A stretch of 32,000 nt of DNA. Origin: an archaeon (GTDB lineage Archaea > Iainarchaeota > Iainarchaeia > Iainarchaeales > CSSED10-239). The translations under genes were made by a program, and so were the position numbers. The stretch is taken from contig DAOOUC010000001.1 in NCBI GenBank assembly GCA_035390665.1, positions 90,001 through 122,000 on the forward strand, in the 5' to 3' direction. This document shows, piece by piece, positions 1,170 through 32,000 of the stretch. Positions within the stretch are counted from its first letter, which is position 1; each line of letters begins with the position of its first letter. The notes under the pieces are model-generated. The model was given only the letters and a program-made list of their open reading frames with translations. It had not been told where the DNA came from and did not search any database.

Positions 1170-1180
1170 GTGAATAATAC

Positions 1181-1639
1181 ATGAAAAAAGGACAACTTTC
1201 AATTGAAGTTATAATATTATTAGCAATATTTTTACTTTTTTTTCAAGCAATGATTCTACCGTCAATTGAATTTGCAGAAAATACAATAAAAGATACTCAC
1301 GCTATTGTTCAAACAAAGAAAGGCATAGATGGTTTAGCAGACAATATAGAACAATTTTCAAATAGTGCAGGATACGGTAAAAGACATATGTTTTTCTATA
1401 TTCCAAATAACACAATAATTACAGATTGTAATAATACAAATAAAACTATAAATTATGAAATAAGAATATCAACACAAAAGCCAACCCCAATTGGCTGTGA
1501 TGTTAACGGACTATGTAAGTTTTCTAAACAATTGTATATAACTAACGATTTTTCATGTACAAAGATCGGGCCAGGATATAATAGCAATATCTTTATAGAA
1601 AAAACAGATGAAGGCGAAATAGATATATCTTCTGAATAA
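1181..1639 (+). CDS. Archaeal type IV pilin-like protein with class III signal peptide (DUF361/Class_IIIsignal type)
   Basis: The N-terminus MKKGQLSIEVIILLAIFLLFF has the predicted cleavage site KG|Q, Gln at +1, Glu at +5, then a hydrophobic helix. An SD-like AGGTGA lies at 1168-1173. The globular part has 4 Cys and several N-x-S/T sequons. Confidence 0.75.
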   Translation: MKKGQLSIEVIILLAIFLLFFQAMILPSIEFAENTIKDTHAIVQTKKGIDGLADNIEQFSNSAGYGKRHMFFYIPNNTIITDCNNTNKTINYEIRISTQKPTPIGCDVNGLCKFSKQLYITNDFSCTKIGPGYNSNIFIEKTDEGEIDISSE

Positions 1640-1654
1640 GAAAGTGAATAGCAA

Positions 1655-1993
1655 ATGAAAAAAGGACAAGTAAGTATAGAATATGTGATTGTTATTGCAG
1701 TTATCTTAATCTTAACTGTATTTTTTGCTAATCTTACATTTGATACAACAGACACAACAAAATCCATAGCTAAAATAAAATTAAGAACGCTTGATCTAAT
1801 TACATTAAATGATTCTAATGCAACTCTTTTAAATGTGGAGAACACGATTGTAGATTCTAATCTGAATTTAAAACTATACATTAAAGATGGATTACAGTTA
1901 AATCTAACAGATCAAAACTACACAGAAGTAATAAATAATATAAAAGAAACAACTTATTATGAAAATATTAATTTAAGTTTTGAATATAACTGA
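1655..1993 (+). CDS. Archaeal type IV pilin-like protein with class III signal peptide (paralog of 1181..1639 at the N-terminus)
   Basis: The N-terminus MKKGQVSIEYVIVIAVILILTV shows the same KG|Q...E(+5) pattern. The first 15 nt are identical to the upstream gene (atgaaaaaaggacaa). The gap to the upstream gene is 15 nt and contains an SD-like AGTGA. Confidence 0.75.
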   Translation: MKKGQVSIEYVIVIAVILILTVFFANLTFDTTDTTKSIAKIKLRTLDLITLNDSNATLLNVENTIVDSNLNLKLYIKDGLQLNLTDQNYTEVINNIKETTYYENINLSFEYN

Positions 1994-2002
1994 GGTAATA
2001 AA

Positions 2003-2575
2003 ATGAATTCAAAATATTTATTGTTACAAGGATTCTTATTAACAAGTGTTTTTGTAAGTTTATTTGTAGATAAAAATCTTTTTTTAAAAATTTTATTGAT
2101 AGTCTTACTTTTCCTTTATGGTTTATTGATTTTACCTGAATTTAAATATAATAGAGAAAGGTATTTATTTTCAGCAACTGGCTTTGTTATTATATCCATT
2201 TTATTCTTGTTTGTAAGACACACAACAGGAACAACATATATTTTAATTCTTTGTTGTTTACTTGTTTTGTTTGTTTATCTTTCAAGAGTAATGTTTTCAA
2301 AAACATTCGGTGTTGTTTTAGAAAGTTCAACAAGATTTACTAAAGTTAAAATAACAGATGAACTATTTAGTTATGGGCAAAAATTTGAATTAAGATCAAC
2401 TAAGAAGTATACAATTGATTCAATAGTTTTAATAGAACTAGATAAATCGGTTTTAAGAAAACCAATATCGATTATTAAACAAATAGATAGAGAACCAAAA
2501 ATTATCAAAACCCTTATAAAAAATAACAAAATCACAAAAAAATCAAAGAAAACAATTAAGAAGAAGAAAAAATAA
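2003..2575 (+). CDS. Hypothetical 4-TM membrane protein with soluble beta-rich C-terminal domain and poly-Lys tail (possibly NfeD-like; weak)
   Basis: Four hydrophobic segments are followed by GVVLESSTRFTKVKITDELFSYGQKFELRS...IVLIELDKSVL, a pattern reminiscent of NfeD C-terminal OB domains. It ends in KKSKKTIKKKKK. GAGGT SD lies upstream. No family assignment is possible by eye. Confidence 0.5.
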   Translation: MNSKYLLLQGFLLTSVFVSLFVDKNLFLKILLIVLLFLYGLLILPEFKYNRERYLFSATGFVIISILFLFVRHTTGTTYILILCCLLVLFVYLSRVMFSKTFGVVLESSTRFTKVKITDELFSYGQKFELRSTKKYTIDSIVLIELDKSVLRKPISIIKQIDREPKIIKTLIKNNKITKKSKKTIKKKKK

Positions 2576-2603
2576 ATATTCCTTATAGATTGTAAGGAAT
2601 ATT
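2575..2603 (+). promoter_or_regulatory. Perfect 11-bp stem / 7-nt loop hairpin in the intercistronic gap, overlapping the SD of the next gene
   Basis: AATATTCCTTA (2575-2585), tagattg, TAAGGAATATT (2593-2603); base pairs were checked one by one. The left arm starts at the last base of the upstream stop codon. The right arm contains AAGGAA, the only SD-like element before the ATG at 2608. Confidence 0.5.
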
Positions 2604-2607
2604 ATAA

Positions 2608-2964
2608 ATGTTTGAAAAATATATAAGAATACTAATTATTTGTTCTTGTCTTTTCGGACTTCTTGGGATTCTATCGATAACTTATTTTTATGAATCTAGA
2701 CAAATTTCTGTTTCTTCTCTTTTAGGTACTGAACCAAATGAAAAAATATATATTGTTTCTGGGCAAGTAAAAGAGATTACAGAAAAATCCAATACTCTTT
2801 TTTTTCAATTGTGTGATTCTTTTGAGTGTGTGCAAGCGGTTTATTTTAATCCAACAAAAGAAGATGTGGCATTTGTTTCTAGAAATCAAGAATTAACAGT
2901 AAAAGCAAAATATACAACTTTTAATAATACCCCTGAACTAATTGCTTTTTCTTTCAGGAGGTAA
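2608..2964 (+). CDS. Membrane-anchored OB-fold protein (tRNA_anti-like OB domain)
   Basis: An N-terminal TM helix (ILIICSCLFGLLGILSITYFY) is followed by IYIVSGQVKEITEKSNTLFFQLCDSFECVQAVYFNP...ELTVKAKYTTFNNTPELIAF. This is the typical v.v.G.V..i...g..f..l.D..g.i..v.f...l.v.G.....g..el pattern of small OB-fold domains. Confidence 0.55.
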   Translation: MFEKYIRILIICSCLFGLLGILSITYFYESRQISVSSLLGTEPNEKIYIVSGQVKEITEKSNTLFFQLCDSFECVQAVYFNPTKEDVAFVSRNQELTVKAKYTTFNNTPELIAFSFRR

Positions 2965-2970
2965 TTTTTT

Positions 2971-4167
2971 TTGTTTCTCGTAGATGTTATTGCAGGAATT
3001 CTGTTTGGTTTTGCTCTTGGATTAATTCCGAGTTTGCATATTAACCTCATAGGTTATCTTTTTTCCTTATTTGGGATGTTTATGTTTTTCAAAAACCACT
3101 TCTATTTTTTCTTTTCTCTTTGTATTTCTCAGACTCTTACAAGTATTGTTCCTTCTTTTCTTTTTTATGCTCCAACCCCCGACACCTTAATTTCACCATT
3201 TCTTGGACAACCTGAAAGCCCCAAAATAGCTCTTTTAGAATATTTTTCTCTTTCTTTCTTTGGTTTTCTTCTTGGTGCTTTTTTCGCAGTTTTATTTCTC
3301 CCAATTTTTTACTTATTGTTTGTTATGTTTTCGGATTTCTACATTTTGATTTTTATTGTTCTTTTGCTTGTCTTGATATTTTTAATCTTTCAAGAAAATT
3401 ATTGGCAATCTTGTGGCCTTGTGTTTTCTATTGTTGTTTTTTCTGGGGTATTAGGCACCTTTACTTTAAAATATAATTTCTTTTTCAAAGAACCGTTAAT
3501 TCCGTGTATTTTTGGCTTGTTTGCTTTCCCAAATATTTTAGTGATTTTGTTTTCTGATAGTAAGGGTCAGGAAAAGTCAAGTCCATCTGTCCAAGAAATA
3601 ATAAGTTTTAAAGATATTGTTAACTCTTCTTTTCTTGGCACCCTCTTTTCCTCAACTATAGCTATTTTCCCTTCTCTTAGCCCAGGTCTTGCTATGTCTT
3701 TTGCTTCTTTTTTTCAAGATAAAAATTCTTCAAAAAAAACAATCGTAATGTTTTCAAGCATTCTTTCAAGTGTGCTACTAATTTATTTTTTCTTGTCTGT
3801 TGTTTTTAACAAGCACAGGCTTGGTTTCTTATCAATGCTTTCTACAAACCAAATTTTTCCAAAAATGGTTCTATCTGATATTTTCTTTATGTCTTTTGTT
3901 TTTCTTTTAGTTGTTGGTTTAACTGTGTTTATAATTTACAGTTCAATAGACACAATTATTTTTTTTCTAAATAGGTTTGATAAAAGAAATATTTTATTTT
4001 GTGTTTCTACTTTTTCCATTCTCCTTATATTTTGGTTTTGCGGCCTTGCGGGGGTTTTCCTTTTGCTTGTTTCTACAGCAATTGGTTTTTTGCCAATAGT
4101 TTATAATAAAAACAGATTGGCTCTAATGTCTTATTTAATTATTCCAACAGTTTTGTTTTTTGTTTAA
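2971..4167 (+). CDS. Polytopic integral membrane protein, possibly DUF112/TctA-like (COG1784-type)
   Basis: 398 aa and at least 10 hydrophobic segments. The TTG start is supported by a strong AGGAGGT SD at 2955-2961, and no in-frame ATG is nearby. Two G-x-x-(P)-S/G-L motifs (GLIPSLHINL, IFPSLSPGLAM) resemble the duplicated PG(L/I) motifs of TctA/DUF112 proteins. The family call comes from memory of the motif only. Confidence 0.4.
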   Translation: MFLVDVIAGILFGFALGLIPSLHINLIGYLFSLFGMFMFFKNHFYFFFSLCISQTLTSIVPSFLFYAPTPDTLISPFLGQPESPKIALLEYFSLSFFGFLLGAFFAVLFLPIFYLLFVMFSDFYILIFIVLLLVLIFLIFQENYWQSCGLVFSIVVFSGVLGTFTLKYNFFFKEPLIPCIFGLFAFPNILVILFSDSKGQEKSSPSVQEIISFKDIVNSSFLGTLFSSTIAIFPSLSPGLAMSFASFFQDKNSSKKTIVMFSSILSSVLLIYFFLSVVFNKHRLGFLSMLSTNQIFPKMVLSDIFFMSFVFLLVVGLTVFIIYSSIDTIIFFLNRFDKRNILFCVSTFSILLIFWFCGLAGVFLLLVSTAIGFLPIVYNKNRLALMSYLIIPTVLFFV

Positions 4168-4175
4168 TTAAGGAA

Positions 4176-4556
4176 ATGGATATTATGAGTAACTGGAAAA
4201 TAAAGAAAAAAATCCTATTGACAATCATGGAATTATCTAAAGAGGCTTATCCAAATGAATTTAGTGGAATGCTTGTTGGGGATAAAGACGAAAAGATTAT
4301 TGATGACATCTATATAATTCCAGCAACAATAAATAATCACAATTCTTCAACTCTTCGTTTAGACTTGGTGCCAATGTCTTTTTCAATCGTAGGCTCTGTT
4401 CACTCACACCCATCTTCTTCAAGTCAAGCTTCAAGAGCAGATCAGAAATTTTTCCAAAGTAAAGCAATAAATATTATTTCAAGATATCCTTATAGCCCAA
4501 TGGATTTTACAGCTTACAACCACAAAGGAGAAGAAGTTGGAATTGAAATAATCTAA
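4176..4556 (+). CDS. Stand-alone JAMM/MPN+ metalloprotease (Mov34/PAD-1 family)
   Basis: The JAMM motif is complete: upstream Glu in YPNEFSGMLVG, then HSHPSSSSQASRAD, which fits H-x-H-x7-S-x2-D exactly. Its size (about 125 aa) matches minimal archaeal JAMM proteins. The true start may be the ATG at 4188. Confidence 0.8.
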   Translation: MDIMSNWKIKKKILLTIMELSKEAYPNEFSGMLVGDKDEKIIDDIYIIPATINNHNSSTLRLDLVPMSFSIVGSVHSHPSSSSQASRADQKFFQSKAINIISRYPYSPMDFTAYNHKGEEVGIEII

Positions 4557-4610
4557 TTTTATTTATAAAAACCTAAGTTTTTATATGTTATTATTATTAT
4601 TATTCTTATT

Positions 4611-5543
4611 ATGAGAAAAAGAAAATTTAAATTCAAAGCCCTTTCGCCAATAGTTGCAACAATTCTTTTAGTTGTTGTTTCTGTAATTCTGGTTTCAATA
4701 GTTTTGAATTGGGGCAGAAACATTACAAACTCTAGTTTAAATGAAACAGACCCAATACTAAAGCAAACAAATCAGAACTATTTAATAGGCAGCCCAAAGC
4801 TTAATGCCCAAGGCATTCTTACTTTTAAGAATATCACTCCCGGTGAGAAATCAATAACAATAACTAGCTATCAGATAGTCAGTAGTTCAGAAGACGATAA
4901 CTTCAACAACACAATAGCCCTTAATGAAACTACAATCCAGCCAGGCGCTACACACGTCATCTCAATACAGGCCTTTCCACCAGAACCAAAATTTACAATA
5001 TTATTAATCACAGATGAAAACGAATATATCTCAATAGAAGGAATAAGAAATCCCCCAGTAACATTACAAGATATTCCTGTAGAAGAAGTTCTTGAACTTC
5101 CATATGTTATGGATGGAGAGAATAAATTATACATTCATCCAACAGATAATTCTACAGGTGTTGCTTGGGGCTGTCCAGGGACATTAATTGGTTCTGGTGC
5201 TCAATCACTAACAAATGGTTTAGCAAACACCACTGCGATTCTTGCAGGCTGTGTAACAAGACCAATAGCTGCAAGTATTTGTAATGATTTAGATTTTGGA
5301 GGATATGATGATTGGTATCTTCCTGCGAGAGATCAGCTGGGTGAAATTTGTAGTTACCAAGCAGTTATATATACAGGAGATTATAGTAGTTCTTGGATAG
5401 GTCTTGATTTTTGTAGTTATAGTTATTGGACAAGTACAGAATGGGGCGCTAACGACGCATACTATATGGAACCAGGTGGTTGGAGCCTAGAACAAAGTTC
5501 AAAGTCCGAAATATATCGTGTACGTTGTGTTCGTGGAGGATAA
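4611..5543 (+). CDS. Archaeal type IV pilin N-terminal domain protein fused to a C-terminal DUF1566 (Lcl C-terminal-like) domain
   Basis: The N-terminus MRKRKFKFKA|LSPIVATILLVVVSVILVSIVLNWG matches the Pilin_N/DUF1628-type class III signal. The C-terminus ICNDLDFGGYDDWYLPARDQLGEI...YWTSTEWGANDAYYM...IYRVRCVRGG matches the DUF1566 hallmarks (GG..DWrLP...EL ... YWsSte ... vRCVR). Confidence 0.8.
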   Translation: MRKRKFKFKALSPIVATILLVVVSVILVSIVLNWGRNITNSSLNETDPILKQTNQNYLIGSPKLNAQGILTFKNITPGEKSITITSYQIVSSSEDDNFNNTIALNETTIQPGATHVISIQAFPPEPKFTILLITDENEYISIEGIRNPPVTLQDIPVEEVLELPYVMDGENKLYIHPTDNSTGVAWGCPGTLIGSGAQSLTNGLANTTAILAGCVTRPIAASICNDLDFGGYDDWYLPARDQLGEICSYQAVIYTGDYSSSWIGLDFCSYSYWTSTEWGANDAYYMEPGGWSLEQSSKSEIYRVRCVRGG

Positions 5544-5557
5544 AATTCTATTTATTT

Positions 5558-5590
5558 GTTTTTAATTATTTTTTTATTCCTATTTTCTTT
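5558..5590 (+). terminator. Oligo-T tract candidate archaeal terminator after the pilin-DUF1566 gene
   Basis: T5 at 5559-5563, T7 at 5569-5575 and further T-runs lie within 50 nt of the stop at 5543. Archaeal RNAP terminates at oligo-T. The call is weak because the genome is AT-rich. Confidence 0.35.
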
Positions 5591-5666
5591 CAAAAACGCC
5601 CTAAAAAAACAAAAATTTATAAACCTTACAGCACAAAGCATTTATTAATTTTGGTTATTAATATCT

Positions 5667-5695
5667 TTAGTTGATGTCTTTTGACATTTGACTAA
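5667..5695 (+). promoter_or_regulatory. Interrupted palindrome upstream of grpE, candidate operator
   Basis: TTAGT-TG-ATGTC tttt GACAT-TTG-ACTAA has 5+5 perfectly complementary outer and inner arms. It lies between a TATA-like TTTATTAA (5641-5648) and AAATATAAATA (5705-5715), 36 nt before the grpE ATG. Confidence 0.35.
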
Positions 5696-5730
5696 AAATT
5701 ATTCTAAATATAAATAATGTGAGGATATCT

Positions 5731-6267
5731 ATGAGTACAGACAATAAAGAATCCATCTCAAAAGAGGAAGAAACAAAAATTAAAGAAACAATAGAGACAA
5801 TAAAACAAAAACTTGAAGAACAAGACAAACTTTCTAAAGAGTATCTGGATTTGCTTCAAAGAACACAAGCAGAGTTTAGAAACTATAAGCAAAGAGTTGA
5901 AAGGGAAACACAAGATATTATCTTTATAGAGAAAGCAAAAATCTTAGCTGAATTTTTAAATTATAGAGACACAATTGTTAAAGCAATAGAAAAAGAAAAA
6001 GAAGAGATTACAAAAAAATCTCTAGAGCACATGTTAGTAAATTACGATATTATTCTAAAAAGGCAAGGCATAGAAAAACTAGAAGTTATAGGTAAAGACT
6101 TTGATTATAATTTCTGTGATTGTTTGTTAAAGCAAGAGTGTGAAGAAGATAAAGACAATAAAGTAATTGCAATTATTGAAGATGGCTTTACATTAAATAA
6201 AAGATTAATAAAACCAGCAAAGGTTATTGTTGGTGCAAGTAAAAAAGAAAATGGTGATAAGATATGA
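5731..6267 (+). CDS. grpE: GrpE nucleotide exchange factor
   Basis: A coiled-coil N-terminal half carries [18 protein letters not shown] (GrpE signature region), followed by a beta C-terminal domain. The stop overlaps the dnaK start (ATGA at 6264-6267). I prefer the ATG at 5731 (GAGGA SD at 5721-5725) over the GTG at 5719 used by the ORF track. Confidence 0.9.
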
Positions 6268-8066
6268 GTAAAGTAATTGGAATTGATTTAGGTACAACAT
6301 ATTCTGCAGTTTCTGTTGTAGAAGCTGGACAGCCAAAAATTTTAATTAATTCAGAAGGGTCAAGAACAACCCCTTCTGTTGTTGGATTATCTAATGGCGA
6401 AATAATTGTTGGAGCATTAGCAAAAAGGCAAGCAGTTGTTAATCCAGACAATACCATATATTCCATAAAAAGAAAAATGGGAAGTGGAGATAAAGTTAAA
6501 ATTGGAGGAAAAGATCATTCCCCAGAACAGATTTCTGCATATATTTTACAAAAATTAAAAAAAGATGCTGAAGAACAATTGGGTCAAAAAATTACTCAAG
6601 CAGTAATAACAGTTCCAGCATATTTTTCAGACTCTCAAAGAAAAGCAACAAAGGCAGCAGGAGAGATTGCTGGTCTAGAAGTTTTAAGAATAATTAACGA
6701 ACCAACAGCTGCTGCTTTAGCGTATGGTCTAGATAAAAAACACGCCCACACAATTTTAGTATTTGATTTTGGTGGTGGAACTTTCGATGTTTCTATTTTA
6801 GAGTTATCTGACGGTGTGTTTGAAGTCAAAGCCACAGCTGGAGACAACCACTTAGGTGGTGATGACATTGATCAAAAGATAATTGATTTCTTAGTTTCAG
6901 AGTTTAAGAAAAAAGAAGGAATTGATTTAATAAAAGATAAAATGGCAATGCAAAGATTAAAAGATGAAGCCGAAAAAGTAAAGATAGAGTTGTCTACAAC
7001 TTTAAAGGCAACAATTAATATCCCATATATTACAGCAACACAAGAGGGGCCAAAGCACTTAAACATAGAATTAACAAGAGCAAAGCTTGAAGATTTATGT
7101 GCTGATATTTTTAAAAGATTAGAAATTCCAACAAAGCAAGCAATTAAAGATTCAAAGCTTGATTTATCTAAGATTGACGAAGTTGTTATGGTTGGGGGTT
7201 CAACAAGAATTCCAAAAGTAATTGAGCTTGTTGAAAAATGGACAAATAAAAAACCAAATAAATCAATCAATCCAGATGAAGTAGTAGCAATGGGTGCTGC
7301 AATTCAAGGTGCTGTTCTTGCTGGAGAGGTAAAGGACATACTTCTTCTTGATGTTACTCCTTTGTCTTTAGGTATTGAAACTTTAGGTGGAGTTTTTACA
7401 AAATTAATTGAAAGAAATACAACAATACCAACAAAAAGATCTCAAGTTTTTTCAACAGCTTCTGATTCTCAAACAGCTGTTGATATTCATGTACTTCAAG
7501 GTGAAAGACCATTAGCTAAAGACAATCTAACACTTGGAAGATTCCAGTTGATTGGTATTCCTCCAGCACCACGAGGAGTTCCTCAAATAGAAGTTAGTTT
7601 TGATATAGATTCCAATGGAATAATTAATGTTTCAGCAAAGGATCTTGGTACAGGAAAATCTCAAGCAATTAAGATTACTTCAACAACTTCTTTAAGTAAA
7701 GATGAAATTGAAAGATTAAAAAGAGAAGCAGAAGAGCATGCTGAAGAAGATAAAAAGACTCAGGAAAGAATAGAGACAAGACACAAAGCAGAAACTTTAG
7801 TGTATTCTGTAGATTCAGTTTTAGAAGAAGCAAAAGAAAAGTTGTCTCCTGAAGACACAGAAGAGATAAAGAAATTAAAAGAAGAACTAAGACAAGCAAT
7901 TGATAGTGATTCAGCAGATCTAGAAGAAAAGACAAACGCCTTACAAACAAAACTTTATGATGTTTCTAAAAAGCTTTATCAAAATGCAGCTCCAAATCAA
8001 GAAGGCACAGATGATTCCAAAGACAAAGGAAAAACAGTTGATGCAGATTTTACAGAGGAAAAATAA
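6264..8066 (+). CDS. dnaK: Hsp70 chaperone DnaK
   Basis: Signature segments [21 protein letters not shown] and [12 protein letters not shown] are present, and the full 600 aa are collinear with Hsp70. The N-terminal ATPase domain is the short form ([28 protein letters not shown]), i.e. without the roughly 25-aa insert of Gram-negative DnaK. Confidence 0.97.
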
Positions 8067-8082
8067 AGAAGTGTGACCCATT

Positions 8083-9225
8083 TTGACAAAAGATTACTAC
8101 AAGATTCTTGGAGTTAACAAGAATGCAAATGATGAAGATCTAAAGCAAGCCTATAAGCAATTGGTTAAGAAATATCATCCAGATATTTCTAAAGAGCCAA
8201 ATGCAGAAGAAAGACTAAAAGAGATAACAGAAGCTTATGCAGTTCTTTCTGATCCAACTAAAAGACAACAATACGATATGTTTGGTGAAGAGGGAGTAAA
8301 AGGTGGCGCAGGTTTCAATCAAGGTTTTTCAGGACAAGGTTTTAATTTTGATTTTTCTGATATCTTTTCTAAGTTTGGTTTTGATGAAGATGAGGATTCT
8401 GGTTTCTTTCAAGGTTTTAGAAGCATGCACAGAGGAAGAAGTCAAAGAGAGTCTTGGGCTGAACTAGATTTAAGAACAAGAATAAATATTGATTTTGTTA
8501 CTGCAATTAAAGGCGGGAAAGTAAGTGTTGGTGTTTACAAAGATGTTGTTTGTGATACTTGTGATGGCACAGGCTCTAAATCTAAATCTAAAACCACTTG
8601 TTCAGCTTGTGGTGGAAAAGGAAGAACACTAACTAAAAAACAAACCCCTTTTGGTATTTTTGCAATAGAACAAACTTGTTCTAAATGTAAGGGAGAAGGA
8701 AAAATAAATACAGACCCCTGTAAGAAATGTGATGGAAAGGGCCATGTAAAAAAAGAAACAATTCTTGGAATCGATGTTCCAGCAGGAATTAGCAACGGAG
8801 ATGTTATAAGACTAAGAGGGCAAGGTAACACACATAATGGAGAAGTAGGAGACTTATTTGTTTCTGTTAGTGTAACAGAACACGAGTTCTTCAAAAGAGA
8901 AGGTTATGATCTATATTGTGAGATTCCAATAATTTATTCTGAATTGATCTTAGGAACAAAGATAAAAATAAAAGGGATTCAAGACACAATTAATTTAACA
9001 ATACCAGCAGGCACTCGTCCAGAAACTATCTTTAAAGTTTCAGGAAAAGGTTCTCCTGATCCAAACAAAAGAGGTTTGCACGGTTCTTTATTTGTTAAAG
9101 TAATATTAGCAGAGCCTATCGATGTTAATAGAGAATACAAGCAACTATTAGAAAAACTTGCAAACATTGATAATAAAACAAAAAAGAAGATACAAGATAA
9201 GTTTAAAAGTTATGTTGAGTTTTAA
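8083..9225 (+). CDS. dnaJ: Hsp40 co-chaperone DnaJ (type I, with Zn-finger domain)
   Basis: J-domain DYYKILGV...YHPD; a G/F-rich linker; four CxxCxGxG repeats (CDTCDGTG, CSACGGKG, CSKCKGEG, CKKCDGKG). The TTG start gives the canonical M-x-K-DYY N-terminus. Confidence 0.95.
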   Translation: MTKDYYKILGVNKNANDEDLKQAYKQLVKKYHPDISKEPNAEERLKEITEAYAVLSDPTKRQQYDMFGEEGVKGGAGFNQGFSGQGFNFDFSDIFSKFGFDEDEDSGFFQGFRSMHRGRSQRESWAELDLRTRINIDFVTAIKGGKVSVGVYKDVVCDTCDGTGSKSKSKTTCSACGGKGRTLTKKQTPFGIFAIEQTCSKCKGEGKINTDPCKKCDGKGHVKKETILGIDVPAGISNGDVIRLRGQGNTHNGEVGDLFVSVSVTEHEFFKREGYDLYCEIPIIYSELILGTKIKIKGIQDTINLTIPAGTRPETIFKVSGKGSPDPNKRGLHGSLFVKVILAEPIDVNREYKQLLEKLANIDNKTKKKIQDKFKSYVEF

Positions 9226-12200
9226 AAAAACTCAGATAGACTTTTCTGCTTTTTTGCCTCTTTGTCTGAGAATAGACTGTCTATCTCATTTTCACTTAAG
9301 TTTATTCTTTGCAAAAGATGTGGATTTAATTGATAGTCAATGATTAGGTTTTTTGCAACTTCAAGATATTTCTTTATGGAACCTTGTGCAATTGTTAAAA
9401 TTATTTTTCCCCCACAGTCGCATTTTCCTGACAAAGGCATTCTTCTAAATTTCTTGTTGCATTTAACACATCTTAGTTTCTGTCTTGCAAAAGCTCTGGT
9501 GTTACCAATAATGTCTGGAAAAAGATGATAGTGGAGTAGTCTTTCAAGTGCGTCTTGATTATCAACTGCAAGGATTCTTCCCTGAAGTTTAGCTTGTTTA
9601 TCTACTTTTTCTTGCATTGATTTAATTGAGATATAAGTAGATTGCTTTGGCCCTTCATCGAAGTAATTAGTGTCGTGTGTAAATTTCACACAACTATATT
9701 GTTCTTCTGTTCCAAGAAGTTTCTTAACAGGAACAATCCCTTCAACTTTATCTGGATCAGCAAATGATTTTGTTGCTAAATAAAATTCATAAGGATAACT
9801 TGTGTTAGTTTCTATCTCGTGCGATTCATCATCAATCTCGTAAGGACTAAGAACAGTAGTAAATGCTAAAGGTGCATCCATTCTTCCGCCTCTACCCGTA
9901 CTAAGATAACTTTTAGAAAAATTAAGCATAGAGTCCATTAACAATAACATCGAGTCTTGATCTCCATCAACATTTCTTCTTTTGGCTGTAATATAATAAG
10001 GATGTCCCCAAGCAAGTTTAGATTTAGAATAACCAATTATTCTTCCAACAATTCCAGCAGAAGTGTGTGGTGCAAGACCAATCACAAGTTGTCCAATAAG
10101 ATCTTCTTTAGTTTTAGCATTATAAAATCTAGGCAAGTGATAGTATTTTTCTAACAAGTCATCAACGAAACCTGCAACTCTTAAAAAATATTCTCCACAG
10201 CCTTCATCAACAATTGTATCTTGTGGAAATATAGAAAGTCTTTGGTTATTGTCTTTCAAATCATTTCCAAGATAGTCTTTTTTATATCCAAGTTCTTTTA
10301 GTTTCTCAATAGAAAGATTTAGTTCCTTTCCACTAAATTGAGATATAGTTGCATTTAATGCCTCGTATCTACAAGTTCCATCTCTAAAAACATAAACTTC
10401 GTGTTTAGCTCTTAATAGTCCTTTTTCTAATGGTTCAGATATTTTTTCTTTACTGACTAAACCTTTAACACCTTTAAGGCTATCAGGTATTCCAACCTTT
10501 AAGTTGTTTGCTGCACTTTCAATAAGTTTATCAAGATCAATCTTATGTTCTAAAATCAATTTTGTTTCTTGATTGCATTTAGGACATATTTTTTCATGTG
10601 TTTGCATTTTACATTTATTACACATTCTTATTTCTTTTGTGTTTATTCCACAATTAAAGCAATAACCATTATAAATAATTTTTTTACACTCAGGGCAAAG
10701 ATATGATTTGATCTCAACTTCGTTAACTCCAATATCTTGTTGTTTTGTGCCATCTGCTCTTTTCTTAATTGCTTTCATTAAGTCTCTAGAGTTACCAAAG
10801 CCTCTGCCGATTGGAAACAAAACATTTGGTTTACCTGCCATCTCTCTTTCATGAGCAGCTTCTGGTCTTCCCATTCTTGCTCCAACCCAAAACCCTGATT
10901 TTTCATTAATTTTAATTTTTGAAATTGCACTAAGTATTTCTGTTGTTGTTTTCTCTGTGTTTTCAATTAGTTCTTTATATTCTTCTAAAGGATCAATTGC
11001 ATTAAGTGAACCAACAGTTTTTAGAAGAGGATAAGCTATTTCTTTTTCTACAAGTATTTTGTTTTCTTCTTCAAGATATTTGTGTGGTAGTCCCATTTTC
11101 TCAAATATGTTTTTTATTTCTTTATTATATTCAATCTTAAAACCAATAATTTGTGTTTCTTTTGTTGATAATAAATCTCCTATACCAATAATATCAATAT
11201 CATCAATTGCTTTTTCTATAACGTCTTTAATATTTTCAAAAAAGTTTTTCTTTTTTATTTCAATTTCTTCGTCACTAAATATTTTATCTGATTCTCTTAA
11301 ATTTCTAATAAGTGTTTTTAGTTCTTCATGATTCAAAAGTTCATAATATGCTAAATATTTTGGAAATAAAGGCAAGTCGTATTTTTGAGATAATGCAACA
11401 GAAGTATATGGATTTGGTTTATTAAAAACTTCCTTACAGATATTTAAAACAGTTCTTGATATTTTTCCGGTCTTTTCAAGATATTCCATTTCTGCAATCC
11501 ATTCTTCTCTAACATAGCCCGCTTTAACTAAAGGGTGTCCTGATTTCCTAAAATCTCCAACAGAGATTAGCATGTCTCCTAAGAAAAGAATCTTGTCTAT
11601 TTCTGCTAAGTATTTTTTAGCAGTATTAACATCATCAATATAAACAACGTCTTTATTCTTCAACCTTACAATTGGTCCGTCAATTGTTGAGCAAGGGAAA
11701 TATTGTAAAGATTTACCTGGCCTTTCAATTCTCCCGTGTGTTCCAACAGCTATAAATTCATCTAGTACCATCATTGTAGCAGGATTTATTGCTTTTGCCA
11801 TTAATCCAGCATTTCTTGCTCTACCATATCTAAGTCTAAAGCCCCCTGGTCTAAACGGATAAGAAAACACAGGTCTACCGGCTGCTAACCCCTCAAGATA
11901 TTTAGTTGATGGTTTTAGTTCAAAACCTTCAGCGGTTTTTTTAACTTTAACAAGTTTTTCAAGCCAAGCCCAATTAAGGCCCATCTTCTTACTTGTTTTC
12001 ATAATTTTAAGGGCCCTAACATAAAGTCCATCAATTAAAACAAGACACATTGCCCCTCTTACTCTGTTTGTTTCAATTCCAGGGACATCTCTATTAGCAA
12101 CAATCTCAACTTCGTTATCTGCATAACTATTTACTCTAACAGGAATATTTTCAATAATAATTCTAACTTCGTTTTCTGTTATTCTTTGCTGTCTAACAAC

Positions 12201-12791
12201 AACTTCATCTTGATAAAGCATTCCTTCTTCAATTACTCTTTCAATTTCTTGTCTACTTGGTTTAAATCTATCTAAGTTAAGTTTAGCTCTAGCAAGATCT
12301 CCAAGTAATAGTGGTAAAGTTTGAGCATTTCCTCCAGCAGCTCTAATCGGCCCCGCAAAGTAAATATCAACAAATGGCGTACCATCTTCATTTTTAGAAA
12401 TCTTAATTTCTGGTAATCCATCAAGAGGAGAAACAACCACTCCTTCTGTTTCTATAATTAAGGCAGTTCTTAAAGCTTGATCAAGTCTTTTTTCAGGATC
12501 TTCAATGTCTCCTAATTTTCTATCCAAGATATCATTAAAAATCTGAAGCATTACAGGAAATCTTTCTTGGTGTTCTTCCCACAACTCATTGTATCTTTGA
12601 GCAACACCAGGGGGTCCGACAAGAAGTTCAGTTTTTTCAGCAATACCTCTAGCAGGAAGTGACTCTATGTCGTTATGTGGATCTTTTCCTTGTTGTCTTG
12701 CATTTTTTGCAACAGCTACAGCTGCATCAATCTCTTTAGTTAGGGCGTCATAATATTCTTTAACTTCTTTGTTTGCTTTAATCTCACTCAT
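9222..12791 (-). CDS. polC: DNA polymerase II (PolD) large catalytic subunit DP2
   Basis: 1189 aa with a DP2-typical N-terminus (YYDALTKEIDAAVAVAKNARQQGKDP). Cys4 clusters: CPECKKIIYNGYCFNCG, CNKCKMQTHEKICPKCN and C-terminal CVKCNKKFRRMPLSGKCDCGG. It is translationally coupled to DP1 (ATGA overlap at 12788-12791). No intein-sized insertion is present. Confidence 0.95.
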   Translation of the reverse strand: MSEIKANKEVKEYYDALTKEIDAAVAVAKNARQQGKDPHNDIESLPARGIAEKTELLVGPPGVAQRYNELWEEHQERFPVMLQIFNDILDRKLGDIEDPEKRLDQALRTALIIETEGVVVSPLDGLPEIKISKNEDGTPFVDIYFAGPIRAAGGNAQTLPLLLGDLARAKLNLDRFKPSRQEIERVIEEGMLYQDEVVVRQQRITENEVRIIIENIPVRVNSYADNEVEIVANRDVPGIETNRVRGAMCLVLIDGLYVRALKIMKTSKKMGLNWAWLEKLVKVKKTAEGFELKPSTKYLEGLAAGRPVFSYPFRPGGFRLRYGRARNAGLMAKAINPATMMVLDEFIAVGTHGRIERPGKSLQYFPCSTIDGPIVRLKNKDVVYIDDVNTAKKYLAEIDKILFLGDMLISVGDFRKSGHPLVKAGYVREEWIAEMEYLEKTGKISRTVLNICKEVFNKPNPYTSVALSQKYDLPLFPKYLAYYELLNHEELKTLIRNLRESDKIFSDEEIEIKKKNFFENIKDVIEKAIDDIDIIGIGDLLSTKETQIIGFKIEYNKEIKNIFEKMGLPHKYLEEENKILVEKEIAYPLLKTVGSLNAIDPLEEYKELIENTEKTTTEILSAISKIKINEKSGFWVGARMGRPEAAHEREMAGKPNVLFPIGRGFGNSRDLMKAIKKRADGTKQQDIGVNEVEIKSYLCPECKKIIYNGYCFNCGINTKEIRMCNKCKMQTHEKICPKCNQETKLILEHKIDLDKLIESAANNLKVGIPDSLKGVKGLVSKEKISEPLEKGLLRAKHEVYVFRDGTCRYEALNATISQFSGKELNLSIEKLKELGYKKDYLGNDLKDNNQRLSIFPQDTIVDEGCGEYFLRVAGFVDDLLEKYYHLPRFYNAKTKEDLIGQLVIGLAPHTSAGIVGRIIGYSKSKLAWGHPYYITAKRRNVDGDQDSMLLLMDSMLNFSKSYLSTGRGGRMDAPLAFTTVLSPYEIDDESHEIETNTSYPYEFYLATKSFADPDKVEGIVPVKKLLGTEEQYSCVKFTHDTNYFDEGPKQSTYISIKSMQEKVDKQAKLQGRILAVDNQDALERLLHYHLFPDIIGNTRAFARQKLRCVKCNKKFRRMPLSGKCDCGGKIILTIAQGSIKKYLEVAKNLIIDYQLNPHLLQRINLSENEIDSLFSDKEAKKQKSLSEFF

Positions 12792-14233
12792 TCTTTTTTC
12801 CTTTCAAAGTCTTTTATACAAACTTTTTGATCTTTAAGATTAAATAGTATTGCTTTAGATACTGTCGGCACATGCCCCATCTCTTGTTGGAAAGCTGTAA
12901 TTGATTGCCAGCAAGATGTGCTTATTAAATGGCAGTGTTTATATTTAGAGTAGGCGTGATGATGGATGTGTCCACAAATAAAAACTGCTGGTGCTTCTCT
13001 GACAACTAAAAAGTTTTTTTCAATTGGTATAAAAGTTTGCTTTTCTCCAAATTGCGGCATCAAGTCTCTTCTAACCATTAGTTCTTTTTGTGCAAGATCC
13101 GGTTTATCCATTTTTAAATCTTTTATTTTTCCAAAGATTCCATGAAGTGATACTCCGTGATACATTAAAAACAATAATCCTTCAAGTTCAATCCAAGATG
13201 GAGAACCAAGAATATGTATGTTTTCTTTTTTATAACAGTTAGGTAAATATTTTTCAGGGATTGCAGGCTGTGGATCTGAAACTCTAACAGCGTCGTGGTT
13301 TCCTGGTATTAAAAATATTTCAATATGTTTAGGAATCTTTAATATTAGTTCTTCGAATACTCTATATTGTTCAAAGATGTCTGTTATTGCAAGTTCATCA
13401 TATTGTTTAGGGTATATTCCAATTCCGTCTACAAGATCTCCTGCAATAATAATATATTTGATTTTAGAAATTAGGTCTTGATCTTCTTTTGTAATATTGA
13501 TTCCATTAATCCAGTCAATAAAATCATTAAATTCTTCTTCTCGGAATAGTTTGCTTCCAACATGCGTGTCTCCTAAGATAACAACATAGTTGTCTTTTGT
13601 TGTTGTGGCACTAATATTTTCATAAGGAAGATCAGCATACATTATTTCTTTAGCAATAAATATGTCTTTAGATAAAACTGCGCATTTAAACCCGACAACA
13701 TTATCAAAAAGTATTTCTTTAGGATTAACTTCAAATTCTTTGTTTTCCATTATTACAATATTGACTCTTCCAGTTGGGTCGTCAACAGTCAATAATAGAT
13801 TTCCGTTCTTTGTTAGTCTTTTATCAAAAACCATTCCTACAATATCAACTTCCGTGTTTTTTGTTTCTTTTTTTGCTTCTTCAATTGGCACAGGTTTTAG
13901 GTTTTCTCTTTTTTTTAAAATTTCGTAGATTGCTTGATATTTATCAAGGAAAAGAGATAAGAAGTCATCAACTGAGCCTTGCGATAGTTCCTTTCCTGTA
14001 ACATCATAAGCATCTAATATTCTAAAGTTTTTTCCAGTAGTTTCTACTTTTTCTTCAATGTTGTTTGTTGTAGATATTATTTTTTTAATATCATCTTTAC
14101 ACACAAATATGATTTTTTCTTCTGCAAGTTTATCTAGAATTTTCTGATAATTATTTAGGTTTAATAATCTTAAGCAATCCTCATTAATTATAAGATCTTT
14201 TTCTTGTGCATAGCACACAATTTTTGAATCCAT
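12788..14233 (-). CDS. polB: DNA polymerase II (PolD) small subunit DP1 (3'-5' exonuclease, calcineurin-like phosphoesterase fold)
   Basis: Phosphoesterase motifs GDTHVGS, AGDLVDG, GNHDA and GHIHHH are present, preceded by an OB-like segment. It lies immediately upstream of DP2. Confidence 0.93.
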   Translation of the reverse strand: MDSKIVCYAQEKDLIINEDCLRLLNLNNYQKILDKLAEEKIIFVCKDDIKKIISTTNNIEEKVETTGKNFRILDAYDVTGKELSQGSVDDFLSLFLDKYQAIYEILKKRENLKPVPIEEAKKETKNTEVDIVGMVFDKRLTKNGNLLLTVDDPTGRVNIVIMENKEFEVNPKEILFDNVVGFKCAVLSKDIFIAKEIMYADLPYENISATTTKDNYVVILGDTHVGSKLFREEEFNDFIDWINGINITKEDQDLISKIKYIIIAGDLVDGIGIYPKQYDELAITDIFEQYRVFEELILKIPKHIEIFLIPGNHDAVRVSDPQPAIPEKYLPNCYKKENIHILGSPSWIELEGLLFLMYHGVSLHGIFGKIKDLKMDKPDLAQKELMVRRDLMPQFGEKQTFIPIEKNFLVVREAPAVFICGHIHHHAYSKYKHCHLISTSCWQSITAFQQEMGHVPTVSKAILFNLKDQKVCIKDFERKKE

Positions 14234-25303: not shown

Positions 25304-25525
25304 TTATAATCTTTCAAATTCGTCTTTAGAAATGTTTAAGGTCTTTAAAATCTGATGTATTGTTCCAATTTTTAAAATTTTGTGATTAGGAATAACAAGT
25401 ATTTTATTTTCCTGATTTTTAAAAATAAGGTGGCTCCCTTTTTGTCTAATTAATTTATATCCTTGTTTTTCAATAATTTCACAAACGTACTTTGAAGAAG
25501 TGTTTTGTAATTTAGACATTAACAC
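25304..25525 (-). CDS. hicA: HicA-family toxin (mRNA interferase)
   Basis: About 70 aa. GYKLIRQKGSHLIFKN...ILVIPNH..LKIGTIHQILKTLNIS is the HicA/YcfA dsRBD-like signature with the conserved His. Confidence 0.8.
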   Translation of the reverse strand: MLMSKLQNTSSKYVCEIIEKQGYKLIRQKGSHLIFKNQENKILVIPNHKILKIGTIHQILKTLNISKDEFERL

Positions 25526-25745
25526 TCACTTGCATTTGTTTAATAGAAATCGAAGACACAAGATTTTTTAATTTGGTTTTATTTATTTCTTCAGTGTATA
25601 TCTCTATTGCTTCTTTAATATTTTTTAGAGTATCTTTCTCTGTTTCTCCTTCAGAAATACAACCAGGAAGAGAAGGCACATATGCAGTATATCCCCCTTC
25701 TTCTTGCTTTTCTAAAATTATATCAAATTTCATAGTCTTTTTCAT
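25512..25745 (-). CDS. hicB: HicB-family antitoxin, short form (UPF0150 fold only, no DNA-binding domain)
   Basis: MKFDIILEKQEEGGYTAYVPSLPGCISEGETEKDTLKNIKEAIEIY is the canonical HicB N-domain. It overlaps hicA by 14 nt. The start was set at the ATG at 25745 (or 25733) because a consensus TATA (TTTAAATA on the minus strand, 25772-25765) lies inside the longer ORF-track model (to 25844). Confidence 0.75.
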   Translation of the reverse strand: MKKTMKFDIILEKQEEGGYTAYVPSLPGCISEGETEKDTLKNIKEAIEIYTEEINKTKLKNLVSSISIKQMQVSVNV

Positions 25746-25883
25746 ATATATTACTGATTTAATATATTTAAATATAGCTGGTTTTGTTTTTTGGAATTGT
25801 GAGAATTTTTCAAATAATTTTTTGATAATTACAAAAATTTCCATTTATAATTATTTCTTATCTTAATATATATGTGATAATTT

Positions 25884-29179: not shown

Positions 29180-29524
29180 TTATCTTTTTTTAACAATTTT
29201 TACTTTTGATGGTGTTAAAAGAATCTTTGATGGTGAGATCATTGCAAGGTCTCCGCCTGTATCTTTAACAAACATCTTAATTTGTCCTAAAAATTGTTTT
29301 GCTCTTTGAGCATTTCTTTTTGTTAAGTTCTCAACATCTAAAAGAACAAGATTTTTTTGTTTTAATTCTTTTATTGTTTCTTCAACTTCTGCGTTTGTTT
29401 GTAAGCTGATTGGTTTTACCCAAAAGTCTACGTCTTCTGGTTCTTCCTCAACTTCCATATTGTTTAAGTAGTCGTCTACGTCTAGGTCTTCTCTTTTTGA
29501 GAAAACGCCGTCAAAAAATGCCAT
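29180..29524 (-). CDS. sepF: Archaeal SepF-like cell division protein (DUF552)
   Basis: 114 aa. An N-terminal amphipathic MAFFDGVF segment and an acidic linker are followed by the core VKPISLQTNAEVEETIKELKQKNLVLLDVENL...FVKDTGGDLAMISPSKILLTP, which fits the SepF fold pattern. A strong SD GAGGTGGAG lies upstream. Confidence 0.7.
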   Translation of the reverse strand: MAFFDGVFSKREDLDVDDYLNNMEVEEEPEDVDFWVKPISLQTNAEVEETIKELKQKNLVLLDVENLTKRNAQRAKQFLGQIKMFVKDTGGDLAMISPSKILLTPSKVKIVKKR

Positions 29525-30905: not shown

Positions 30906-32000
30906 ATGTTTTCAATAAACTTAAATCAAAAGAAAAAGGCCCTTGAACCACTTATTGCAACTATTTTGTTAATAGTTGTTTCTGTAATTTTAGTTACAAT
31001 TGTTTTAACTTGGGGCAAGAACTTTTCAGTAGAAGAATTAAATAAAACAAATAATATTATTTACGTAAAATCAGATATAAGTAACTATATACAATATAAA
31101 ACAAGAAGTAATACAACAAGCGAAAACAACATTTTAGAAATAAAAAATATACATCCAACAGAAACTGCAACAATTGTCGGATATAAGATATTATCTCCAA
31201 ATAGTAAATTTAGATTTTTAGACGATTATCAATTTAGTCTTGATGAAAATGCTACATTATCTCCCGGTCAATCAATTTTTTTAGGATTAGCCTGTACGCC
31301 AGAGCAAACATTTAATGTTGAATTATTAACAAGTGATAGCAAATATATTTTTATAAAATATAATAGTCTTAATTCTAGTCCAGCAAGTTGTATAAAAGAC
31401 ATGGATTTTGGTTGGCATCACGCATGTGTGGTTTTAGCAACGGGCAAAGTAAAATGTTGGGGGCGAAATGATAATGGCCAATTAGGAGATGGCACAATAG
31501 CTCAAAAAAAAATACCAATAGAGGTCTTAGATATAAATTCAGGGGTTGCAATAACCGCCGGAGATTTACACACGTGTGTTGTTTTGAGTTCAGGAGAAAT
31601 AAAATGTTTTGGAGATAATCCTTATGGTCAATTAGGTAATCAAAATACAACAGATAGCAACTTTCCAGTAACTGTTTTGGGAATAAATAATGCAATAAAA
31701 GTTTCAGGTGGTTGTTGGCACACATGCGCATTACTAAATACTGGTGAAATAAACTGTTGGGGGGCAAATACAAATGGCCAATTAGGTAATGGTACAAAGA
31801 CAAATAGTTTAATACCAGTTTCTGTTATTGATTCAAATAATGATATTATTACAAACTTTGTAGATGTAAAAGTAGGCTGTACTAATAGTTGTGCATTACT
31901 AAATAACGGACAAATAATGTGTTGGGGTAATAATCAATATGGGAAGTTAGGAGATGGCACAACAACAGATAAAAATACTGCAACACCCGTTTTAAATGTG
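30906..32000 (+). CDS. Archaeal type IV pilin N-terminal domain protein fused to RCC1-repeat beta-propeller (3'-partial, runs off the window)
   Basis: Hand-translated: ATG at 30906, then 365 codons open to the window edge. The N-terminus MFSINLNQKKKA|LEPLIATILLIVVSVILVTIVLTWG is paralogous to 4611..5543. From about codon 165 there are at least 4 RCC1-type blades (HACVVLATGKVKCWGRNDNGQLGDGT; HTCVVLSSGEIKCFGDNPYGQLGN; HTCALLNTGEINCWGANTNGQLGNGT; SCALLNNGQIMCWGNNQYGKLGDGT). It is absent from the supplied ORF track because it has no stop. Confidence 0.85.
   Translation, partial: MFSINLNQKKKALEPLIATILLIVVSVILVTIVLTWGKNFSVEELNKTNNIIYVKSDISNYIQYKTRSNTTSENNILEIKNIHPTETATIVGYKILSPNSKFRFLDDYQFSLDENATLSPGQSIFLGLACTPEQTFNVELLTSDSKYIFIKYNSLNSSPASCIKDMDFGWHHACVVLATGKVKCWGRNDNGQLGDGTIAQKKIPIEVLDINSGVAITAGDLHTCVVLSSGEIKCFGDNPYGQLGNQNTTDSNFPVTVLGINNAIKVSGGCWHTCALLNTGEINCWGANTNGQLGNGTKTNSLIPVSVIDSNNDIITNFVDVKVGCTNSCALLNNGQIMCWGNNQYGKLGDGTTTDKNTATPVLNV

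Follow-up and report, generated by a model that had tools for sequence, protein, structure and literature searches.

A gene at the end of the window

The stretch analysed here (32,000 nucleotides, positions 90,001 to 122,000 of contig DAOOUC010000001.1 from an archaeon of the Iainarchaeales) is called the window throughout. At its end, an ATG at position 30906 starts a frame of 365 codons that is still open at the window edge; translation bore out what the original prediction, made from the sequence alone, had said of this frame. The encoded protein is a putative modular type IV pilin in which a pilin module carries an RCC1-type beta-propeller head. The ATG is the only possible start, since an in-frame stop lies one codon upstream, and the frame is missing from the list of open reading frames (ORFs) because it runs off the end of the window. 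The gene and the parts of its product are as follows.

30906..32000, + strand: modular pilin gene, first 365 of 519 codons (from translation and the match to protein P0121)
30906..30941, + strand: predicted class III (prepilin) leader MFSINLNQKKKA, residues 1–12 (motif common with plain pilins)
30942..31067, + strand: hydrophobic alpha-1 helix, residues 13–54 (helix 14–54 in the stalk-only AlphaFold model, 14–51 in the full-length model)
31068..31364, + strand: beta-sandwich pilin body, or stalk, residues 55–153, seven strands (AlphaFold, Foldseek and profile search)
31365..31391, + strand: short linker, residues 154–162, ending in Cys162 (no regular structure in the model; junction to the head)
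31392..32000, + strand: RCC1-like beta-propeller, blades 1–4 of 7, residues 163–365 of a domain spanning 163–512 (Pfam, AlphaFold and Foldseek)

The part within the window makes up the first 70% of P0121, a public protein of 519 residues (hypothetical protein PK685_00640 [archaeon] at NCBI) that is 100% identical to it over 100% of the window part; the complete gene would end at window-equivalent position 32465. The P0121 gene is called intact, identical and with the same start on contigs of at least four independent metagenome assemblies, and locus L001 is 100% identical to the window across 11,095 bp. Completing the gene, as had been proposed, therefore yielded a full-length protein without stop or frameshift, and a stop, a frameshift or an assembly artefact is ruled out by the identical intact gene in four assemblies. 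In addition, P0131 (615 residues) and P0145 (605 residues) from other metagenomes match P0121 end to end at 48–50% identity, and the pilin–RCC1 fusion is therefore conserved beyond the source genome. A scan for sigma-70 promoters and terminators around the gene found nothing over the shuffled expectation, as expected in an archaeon.

Leader, helix and pilin body

The pilin module is compared below with that of a second gene, which lies near the other end of the window.

4611..5543, + strand: paralogous modular pilin (NCBI HOW29144.1) with leader MRKRKFKFKA, helix, beta-sandwich stalk to about residue 160, and Lcl_C/DUF1566 head at residues 178–308

The N-terminal motif of the 30906 protein is MFSINLNQKKKA/LEPLIATILLIVVSVILVTIVLTWG, i.e., KKKA/LEPLIATILL (the slash marks the cleavage site), and that of the 4611 protein is MRKRKFKFKA/LSPIVATILLVVVSVILVSIVLNWG. 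Both have the hallmarks of class III signals, a short charged leader ending in [KR]-[GA] and followed by at least about 20 hydrophobic residues. In the 30906 protein, the cleavage site predicted from the sequence lies behind Ala12 (position −1), and position −2 is K; residues 1–11 are of low confidence in the AlphaFold model. The KKA/LEPLIATILL motif is common to this protein and to plain pilins encoded beside TadC genes, and a class III motif of the same form is present in 84 related ORFs. The alpha-1 helix that follows is presumed to be the filament-core and membrane-anchor segment. Over its first 30 mature residues, the RCC1 pilin is identical at 27 positions to two plain pilins from the same genome, which fits helices packing together within one filament core.

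An AlphaFold model of residues 1–165, with 124 relatives as input, consists of the long helix (14–54) followed by a seven-strand beta-sandwich (predicted local distance difference test, pLDDT, 85.8); in the full-length model, the sandwich spans residues 62–153. The top Foldseek match of the stalk model in the PDB is 8fk7_A, the archaeal type IV pilus of Pyrobaculum calidifontis (1.7e-6), and the pili of Sulfolobus islandicus (6nav) and S. solfataricus (6w8x) stand near the top of the list. Consistent with the fold comparison, a profile of 45 stalks searched against PDB sequences matches 8fk7_A at 9.7e-10 and 8rey_M at 8.5e-6. The NCBIfam UpsA pilin model matches the 4611 protein weakly (1.9e-5), under its cut-off. 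Structure prediction, which had been put forward as a check on the stalk, thus returned a pilin fold with archaeal type IV pili as the best PDB matches. As judged from model and sequence, the stalk is the globular domain of the pilin itself, with no extra spacer. The earlier idea of a conserved anchor and stalk carrying heads stands.

The relationship between the two window proteins had been noticed from an identical 15-mer in their anchors. There are exactly two copies of this 15-mer, gttgtttctgtaatt, one at 4674 and one at 30975 (0 expected by chance), and a 93-nucleotide segment around it is 76% identical between the two genes. At the protein level, BLASTP aligns the 30906 and 4611 products at 40% identity over 145 residues (E 4e-12), so that the stalk similarity, which was to be dropped if insignificant, is statistically secure. 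With the helix removed, the beta-sandwiches alone still match at 35% identity over 78 residues (E 1.8e-5, in a database of about 190 sequences). This match, specific to head-bearing pilins, rules out that the similarity is due to the hydrophobic helix alone. One detail of the original prediction needs correction: the two stalk peptides quoted there were swapped, ILTFKNITPGE... belonging to the 4611 protein and ILEIKNIHPTE... to the 30906 protein.

Curated pilin profiles do not reach their cut-offs here. PF07790 (Pilin_N) has no match at all in the RCC1 protein in a Pfam scan and scores 18.1 bits on the 4611 protein against a cut-off of 25.2, and TIGR02537 scores 19.4 against a cut-off of 20 on P0038, a plain pilin. 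One might take these scores to mean that the 30906 gene encodes an ordinary type II signal-anchored membrane protein, or is an assembly artefact, and resembles a pilin only through its hydrophobic N-terminus. We consider this most improbable. The similarity persists through the beta-sandwich when the helix is left out, the fold and profile matches to solved archaeal pili span profile positions 1–115, the gene is identical in independent assemblies, and plain relatives are encoded directly beside TadC genes. The Pilin_N and TIGR02537 profiles fail to capture the pilins of this lineage, and public annotation therefore reads 'hypothetical' or 'DUF1566 domain-containing'.

At the junction, alignments of the 30906 protein with differently headed relatives end at about residues 159–163. 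Tyr93 (GYK) is invariant across the stalk alignment A5. In most stalks of this alignment, two cysteines are present: Cys130 (window 31293–31295) in the motif 'C.P..', and Cys162 (31389–31391) at the stalk end just before the head. From the sequence, a disulfide between them may close off the carrier domain where the head begins. Neither has an equivalent in the 4611 paralogue. The RCC1 pilin also contains 11 N-x-S/T sequons.

The RCC1 propeller and the exchange of heads

At least four RCC1 blades had been counted by eye. Pfam finds four RCC1 repeats in the window part (residues 163–361; PF13540 at 3e-36, PF00415 at 9e-34) and seven in the full protein, for which PF00415 scores 179.9 bits (1.2e-53, cut-off 21.7) and PF25390 (WD40_RLD) 252.8 bits (8e-75, cut-off 150). 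Four DNA-level repeats at 31425–31971 lie inside the same coding region. The full-length AlphaFold model (pLDDT 92.1, predicted template modelling score 0.84) places 28 strands at residues 163–512, which form seven four-stranded blades with a pLDDT of about 98. In Foldseek, the propeller matches UVR8 with a template modelling (TM) score of 0.87–0.90, normalised by target length, and a root-mean-square deviation around 1.8 Å (range 1.6–2.2 Å); the RCC1-like domains of HERC1/2, RPGR and RCC1 are further matches. Modelling and repeat detection thus agree that the head is a closed seven-bladed RCC1-like propeller, of about 350 residues and 38 kDa. Together, sequence and model describe a protein built from a 12-residue class III leader, an alpha-1 helix, a beta-sandwich pilin body, a 9-residue linker and this propeller.

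One further frame was listed mechanically at this place.

31375..31803, − strand: antisense ORF, 142 residues, wholly within the + strand RCC1 coding region

It is best treated as spurious because it lies entirely inside a strongly supported coding region; most likely it is no gene.

The 4611 protein carries a different payload, as had been claimed: RCC1 repeats are found by Pfam in the 30906 protein and Lcl_C (DUF1566) at 6.8e-9 in the 4611 protein, together with a sub-threshold Pilin_N. The stalk of the 4611 protein is 67–72% identical to the stalks of P0001, P0002 and P0007 until about residue 160, after which the sequences are unrelated. The P0002 head is CHB_HEX_C_1/Fn3_assoc by Pfam, and the heads of P0001 and P0007 have no Pfam match. 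By comparison, P0027, P0083 and P0242 share the Lcl_C head with the 4611 protein and align with it over the full length at 30–35% identity. At the level of sequence, head exchange is directly visible on the stalks that are 67–72% identical. A diversity-generating retroelement acting on the DUF1566 head was considered and rejected for the window: the DUF1566 region is not repeated, there is no template/variable pair, and no reverse transcriptase was found among the scanned window ORFs.

A family of carrier pilins

The extent of the family was assessed by an exhaustive HMMER search of 1.84 billion representatives (50% identity clusters) with the stalk profile. The census rests on this search because word-indexed searches with stalk profiles were biased to short proteins and returned neither P0121 nor other long members. 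HMMER gave 1460 matches at E ≤ 1e-3, 248 at ≤ 1e-10 and 141 at ≤ 1e-30; at least 141 clusters carry the stalk, N-terminal in every case. Long proteins prevail: 136 of the 150 best stalk matches (91%) have at least 260 residues, and the 132 newly found stalk proteins have a median length of 475 residues, the longest having 1271. Across the family, the heads belong to over 20 Pfam families, the majority of lectin, propeller or Ig-like type. The counts below come from Pfam scans of the 132 proteins, many of which have heads without a Pfam match.

Laminin_G_3 (ConA-like lectin), the commonest head: 23
GLUG: 22
Lcl_C: 12
RCC1: 8 (ten clusters with P0121 and P0145)
CHB_HEX_C_1 / Fn3_assoc: 7
DUF5122 propeller: 5
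Peptidase_M26_N: 5
PKD: at least 4
FGE-sulfatase-like: 4
DUF285: 3
Kelch, NHL, LVIVD, Pentaxin and Toxin_R_bind_N: 2 each
PT-HINT and Listeria-Bacteroides repeat: 1 each

The central proposal of the original prediction, one conserved anchor and stalk with interchangeable heads, is supported by these clusters and head families and by the near-identical stalks with unrelated heads.

A survey of loci, a pattern-limited scan with one genome per species, found 45 loci, up to nine of them in a single genome. The source of each is a metagenome-assembled genome (MAG) whose label reads Ca. Iainarchaeum, Diapherotrites, Ca. Forterrea multitransposorum or archaeon. An ORF scan of the 45 loci gave 84 pilin genes of two kinds. 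The first kind is plain, 147–169 residues long, and stands in tandem triplets or quadruplets; the second is long (31 complete genes, 325–641 residues) and often forms tandem arrays with differing heads. Without the helix, the beta-sandwiches of both window proteins reach E ≤ 1e-4 only with long pilins or fragments, and plain pilins give E > 0.2. Since the sandwich similarity is limited to the long pilins, the stalk represents a dedicated carrier subfamily.

Two of these loci illustrate the arrays. Locus L013 (Ca. ainarchaeum sp. STD2_171) has five modular pilin genes with different heads in tandem at 586..8174, and locus L015 (Ca. Forterrea multitransposorum CP045477) has three at 5959..10729. 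Two genes of L013, starting at 1886 and 4589, encode 467-residue proteins with the same first 45 residues; the equal length and shared N-terminus suggest a recent duplication. Another member, at L044:434-1855 in MAG DAOOON01, is a 474-residue stalk pilin with a pretoxin-HINT/intein-like domain at residues 320–449 (PF07591, 1e-16), and such a head also occurs on one representative in alignment A7. The pretoxin-HINT domain is typical of polymorphic toxin systems. Its presence in the sequence is a hint that the C-terminal part of some carrier pilins may be a payload to be cleaved off and delivered, in place of an adhesin.

Pilus machinery and proposed mechanism

A candidate processing enzyme is encoded at the start of the window.

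102..1169, + strand: prepilin (class III signal) peptidase with A24 and Arc_PepC domains (PF01478 at 1e-13, PF06819 at 1.8e-6)

NCBI names this product prepilin peptidase, and the NCBIfam FlaK and EppA models both match it below their cut-offs. Its sequence contains the motifs CISD and AGGDFKL, which we take to be the positions of the two catalytic aspartates of the family. Just after it, at 1181..1639 and 1655..1993 (+ strand), two small proteins beginning MKKGQ[LV]SIE are encoded (PF04021; one is 'UPF0333' at NCBI). With two signal types, KG/Q..E and KA/L[ES]P, the genome therefore has two kinds of prepilin-like substrates. Further machinery lies about 11.7 kb past the window end, on sequence joined to the window by 100%-identical contig overlaps: two T2SSF/TadC-type platform genes and, behind them, a tandem of four plain pilins (158, 159, 157 and 159 residues). 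The same layout, a methyltransferase, a GTPase, two platform genes and three or four pilins, is repeated in other related MAGs.

On this evidence the 30906 gene probably encodes a modular archaeal type IV pilin, likely a minor or tip pilin that serves as an adhesin through its RCC1 head. The following course of events is proposed. The prepilin peptidase encoded at 102..1169 would remove the leader after Ala12 at the membrane, and the alpha-1 helix would hold the protein there until the pilus machinery takes it. This machinery would insert the RCC1 pilin into a filament built mainly of plain pilins, where it would be scarce or sit at the tip and expose its propeller. Pilin subunits are closely staggered along the helical filament (PMC10191384); a head of 38 kDa, tethered by 9 residues, cannot fit at every position of the filament, hence the expectation of a rare or tip subunit. 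The propeller would then serve as the ligand-binding (adhesin) module for another cell or a surface. The 4611..5543 protein may work likewise with its Lcl_C/DUF1566 head. On the scale of the family, the carrier pilin would have been recombined with many binding heads at a fixed junction, and the family appears typical of the Iainarchaeota/Diapherotrites-type lineage.

Several points weigh against this proposal, in addition to the pilin profile scores given above. The RCC1 pilin gene lies outside the pilus locus, flanked by the housekeeping genes ThiI (upstream) and MnmA (downstream). No type IV pilus assembly ATPase was seen within the roughly 60 kb examined. The 102..1169 peptidase may instead serve the adjoining KG/Q...E proteins of PF04021. 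RCC1 propellers have very diverse partners. For pilus incorporation, cleavage and adhesion alike, we infer the function of the RCC1 pilin from sequence, model and analogy.

The position of the gene outside the pilus locus, and a stalk beta-sandwich that forms a subfamily apart from the plain pilins of that locus, could also mean that the heads are displayed at the cell surface without a pilus. The class III signal and helix would then serve only for export and anchoring, much as in the sugar-binding proteins with class III signals of the Sulfolobus bindosome, or the protein would belong to a very short pseudopilus. This arrangement, the chief alternative, seems unlikely to us, as it leaves aside the near-identity of the helix (27/30) to two plain pilins of the same genome, which is expected if they pack in one filament core. 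Furthermore, the stalk has the complete fold of filament-forming archaeal pilins, and bacterial modular pilins of the same layout are pilus-borne (PMC8179133).

Comparison with known systems

The closest known architecture is that of PilX2 from Nanosynbacter lyticus TM7x, a member of the Saccharibacteria (Candidate Phyla Radiation). PilX2 is a minor pilin of the thin T4P-2 type IV pilus; it has a seven-bladed RCC1 propeller and is needed for host binding (PMC11623550). Deletion of pilX2 reduces host binding from about 10.6% to 4.6% of host cells while filaments remain, and a role as pilus adhesin was proposed (PMC11623550). Like PilX2, the 30906 protein joins an N-terminal pilin module to a C-terminal seven-bladed RCC1 propeller and comes from an ultrasmall organism. 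PilX2 has a bacterial-type pilin fold, reportedly lacks a predicted PilD signal peptide and is encoded within its pilus locus. The archaeal 30906 protein, by contrast, combines a canonical class III motif with a beta-sandwich body, and its gene lies away from the pilus locus. The two are likened by described architecture, and their shared layout is probably convergent.

An RCC1-like fold is also known from BLIP-II, which blocks beta-lactamase. The propeller could in principle work in this way, as an inhibitor or effector directed at one particular protein of a different cell, or could have a signalling role. The BLIP-II structures 3qhy and 1jtd are indeed among the fold matches of the propeller, and the family member with a pretoxin-HINT domain suggests that non-adhesin payloads exist. 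The BLIP-II match is distant, however, with a query-normalised TM score of 0.40 versus 0.65 for UVR8, most heads of the carrier family are lectin-like or Ig-like binding modules, and the sole tested pilin–RCC1 protein, PilX2, affects host binding. An adhesin is therefore preferred, and we give an inhibitory or signalling head very little credence.

In bacteria, modular type IV pilins are adhesins; in Streptococcus sanguinis, PilB carries a vWA and PilC a ConA-like lectin module (Raynaud et al. 2021, PMC8179133). Like them, the archaeal family combines a small pilin module, a short linker and a bulky non-pilus domain in many architectures: in the 30906 protein these are the pilin module 1–153, the linker 154–162 and the RCC1 domain 163–512, and the paralogue has Lcl_C in the last place. 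The ConA-like lectin, the head of S. sanguinis PilC, is also the commonest head of the archaeal family (23/132). By comparison, the bacterial set, whose definition rests on the N-methylation motif IPR012902, does not cover archaea, whereas the archaeal carrier forms its own sequence subfamily, distinct from the plain pilins. By inspection, the archaeal motif KA/LEP... differs from the bacterial G/F..E type, and the 30906 protein is not expected to fall within the published set.

Among archaeal pilins, 8fk7, 6nav, 6w8x and UpsA begin, like the 30906 protein, with a class III leader and a long N-terminal helix and continue with a beta-sandwich. Those solved are single-module proteins of about 130–145 residues, whereas the 30906 protein adds a propeller of 350 residues and is only 12–16% identical to them. 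PilY1/PilC and the DUF2341 'PilY-like' adhesins, the latter described in archaea (Makarova et al. 2016, PMC4858521), resemble the 30906 protein in being large, beta-propeller-containing, associated with type IV pili and thought to sit at the tip. PilY1, however, is no pilin; it docks via minor pilins and has a propeller of another family (IPR008707), whereas the 30906 adhesin candidate is itself a pilin. In this regard, P0136, a 600-residue protein of a Nanopusillaceae archaeon, combines DUF2341 with seven RCC1 repeats, and its propeller is the most similar to that of the 30906 protein by identity (54%). RCC1 propellers therefore occur on two different pilus-associated carriers in DPANN archaea. 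The Sulfolobus bindosome proteins, also archaeal, share the class III signal and a surface-exposed, non-pilin functional domain. Unlike the 30906 protein, these substrate-binding proteins carry solute-binding domains, have no pilin beta-sandwich carrier and are not pilins.

Other features of the window

The window has a G+C content of 29%. A HicA/HicB toxin–antitoxin pair is encoded at 25304..25844 (− strand), with HicB identified by Pfam scan and HicA by public gene calls. A GrpE-DnaK-DnaJ operon lies at 5719..9225 (+ strand) in an otherwise archaeal context, which includes PolD (9222..14233), ribosomal protein S3Ae, NAC and SepF (29180..29524).

Implications for the carrier-pilin family

The original prediction spoke of an undescribed attachment system. 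The principle of grafting binding modules onto pilins is known (PMC8179133, PMC11623550), with PilX2 as the closest specific analogue, and in this respect the claim goes too far; isolated archaeal cases, the DUF2341 adhesins among them (PMC4858521), have also been mentioned, and the archaeal version was not found described in the literature searched, and to that extent the claim survives. Likewise, no description of archaeal modular pilins with a dedicated carrier was found in that literature, the coverage of which is incomplete, so this is no proof of absence. What appears new in archaea is a carrier with a beta-sandwich subfamily of its own, a fixed junction, more than 20 head families and several copies per Iainarchaeota-type genome.

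We tentatively suggest, as a possibility of modest weight, that DPANN archaea of the Iainarchaeota type possess a carrier-pilin system that swaps heads at a junction near residue 160 to retarget their pili, the RCC1 pilin being an independently evolved counterpart of PilX2. If so, two ultrasmall radiations would have arrived independently at one attachment device, and the range of hosts or substrates would be predictable from the repertoire of heads. Some Diapherotrites have been argued to be free-living, and the heads may therefore equally target polymers or surfaces.

The attachment mechanisms of DPANN archaea are largely unknown, and the lineages are mostly uncultured. The family provides sequence-defined candidate adhesins tied to pilus machinery. 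The stalk profile detects archaeal modular pilins that are missed by current Pfam and NCBIfam pilin models, and a comparison of head content across genomes and habitats could serve to predict partners or substrates. The parallel with the RCC1-propeller pilin of Saccharibacteria suggests convergent solutions in two ultrasmall radiations.

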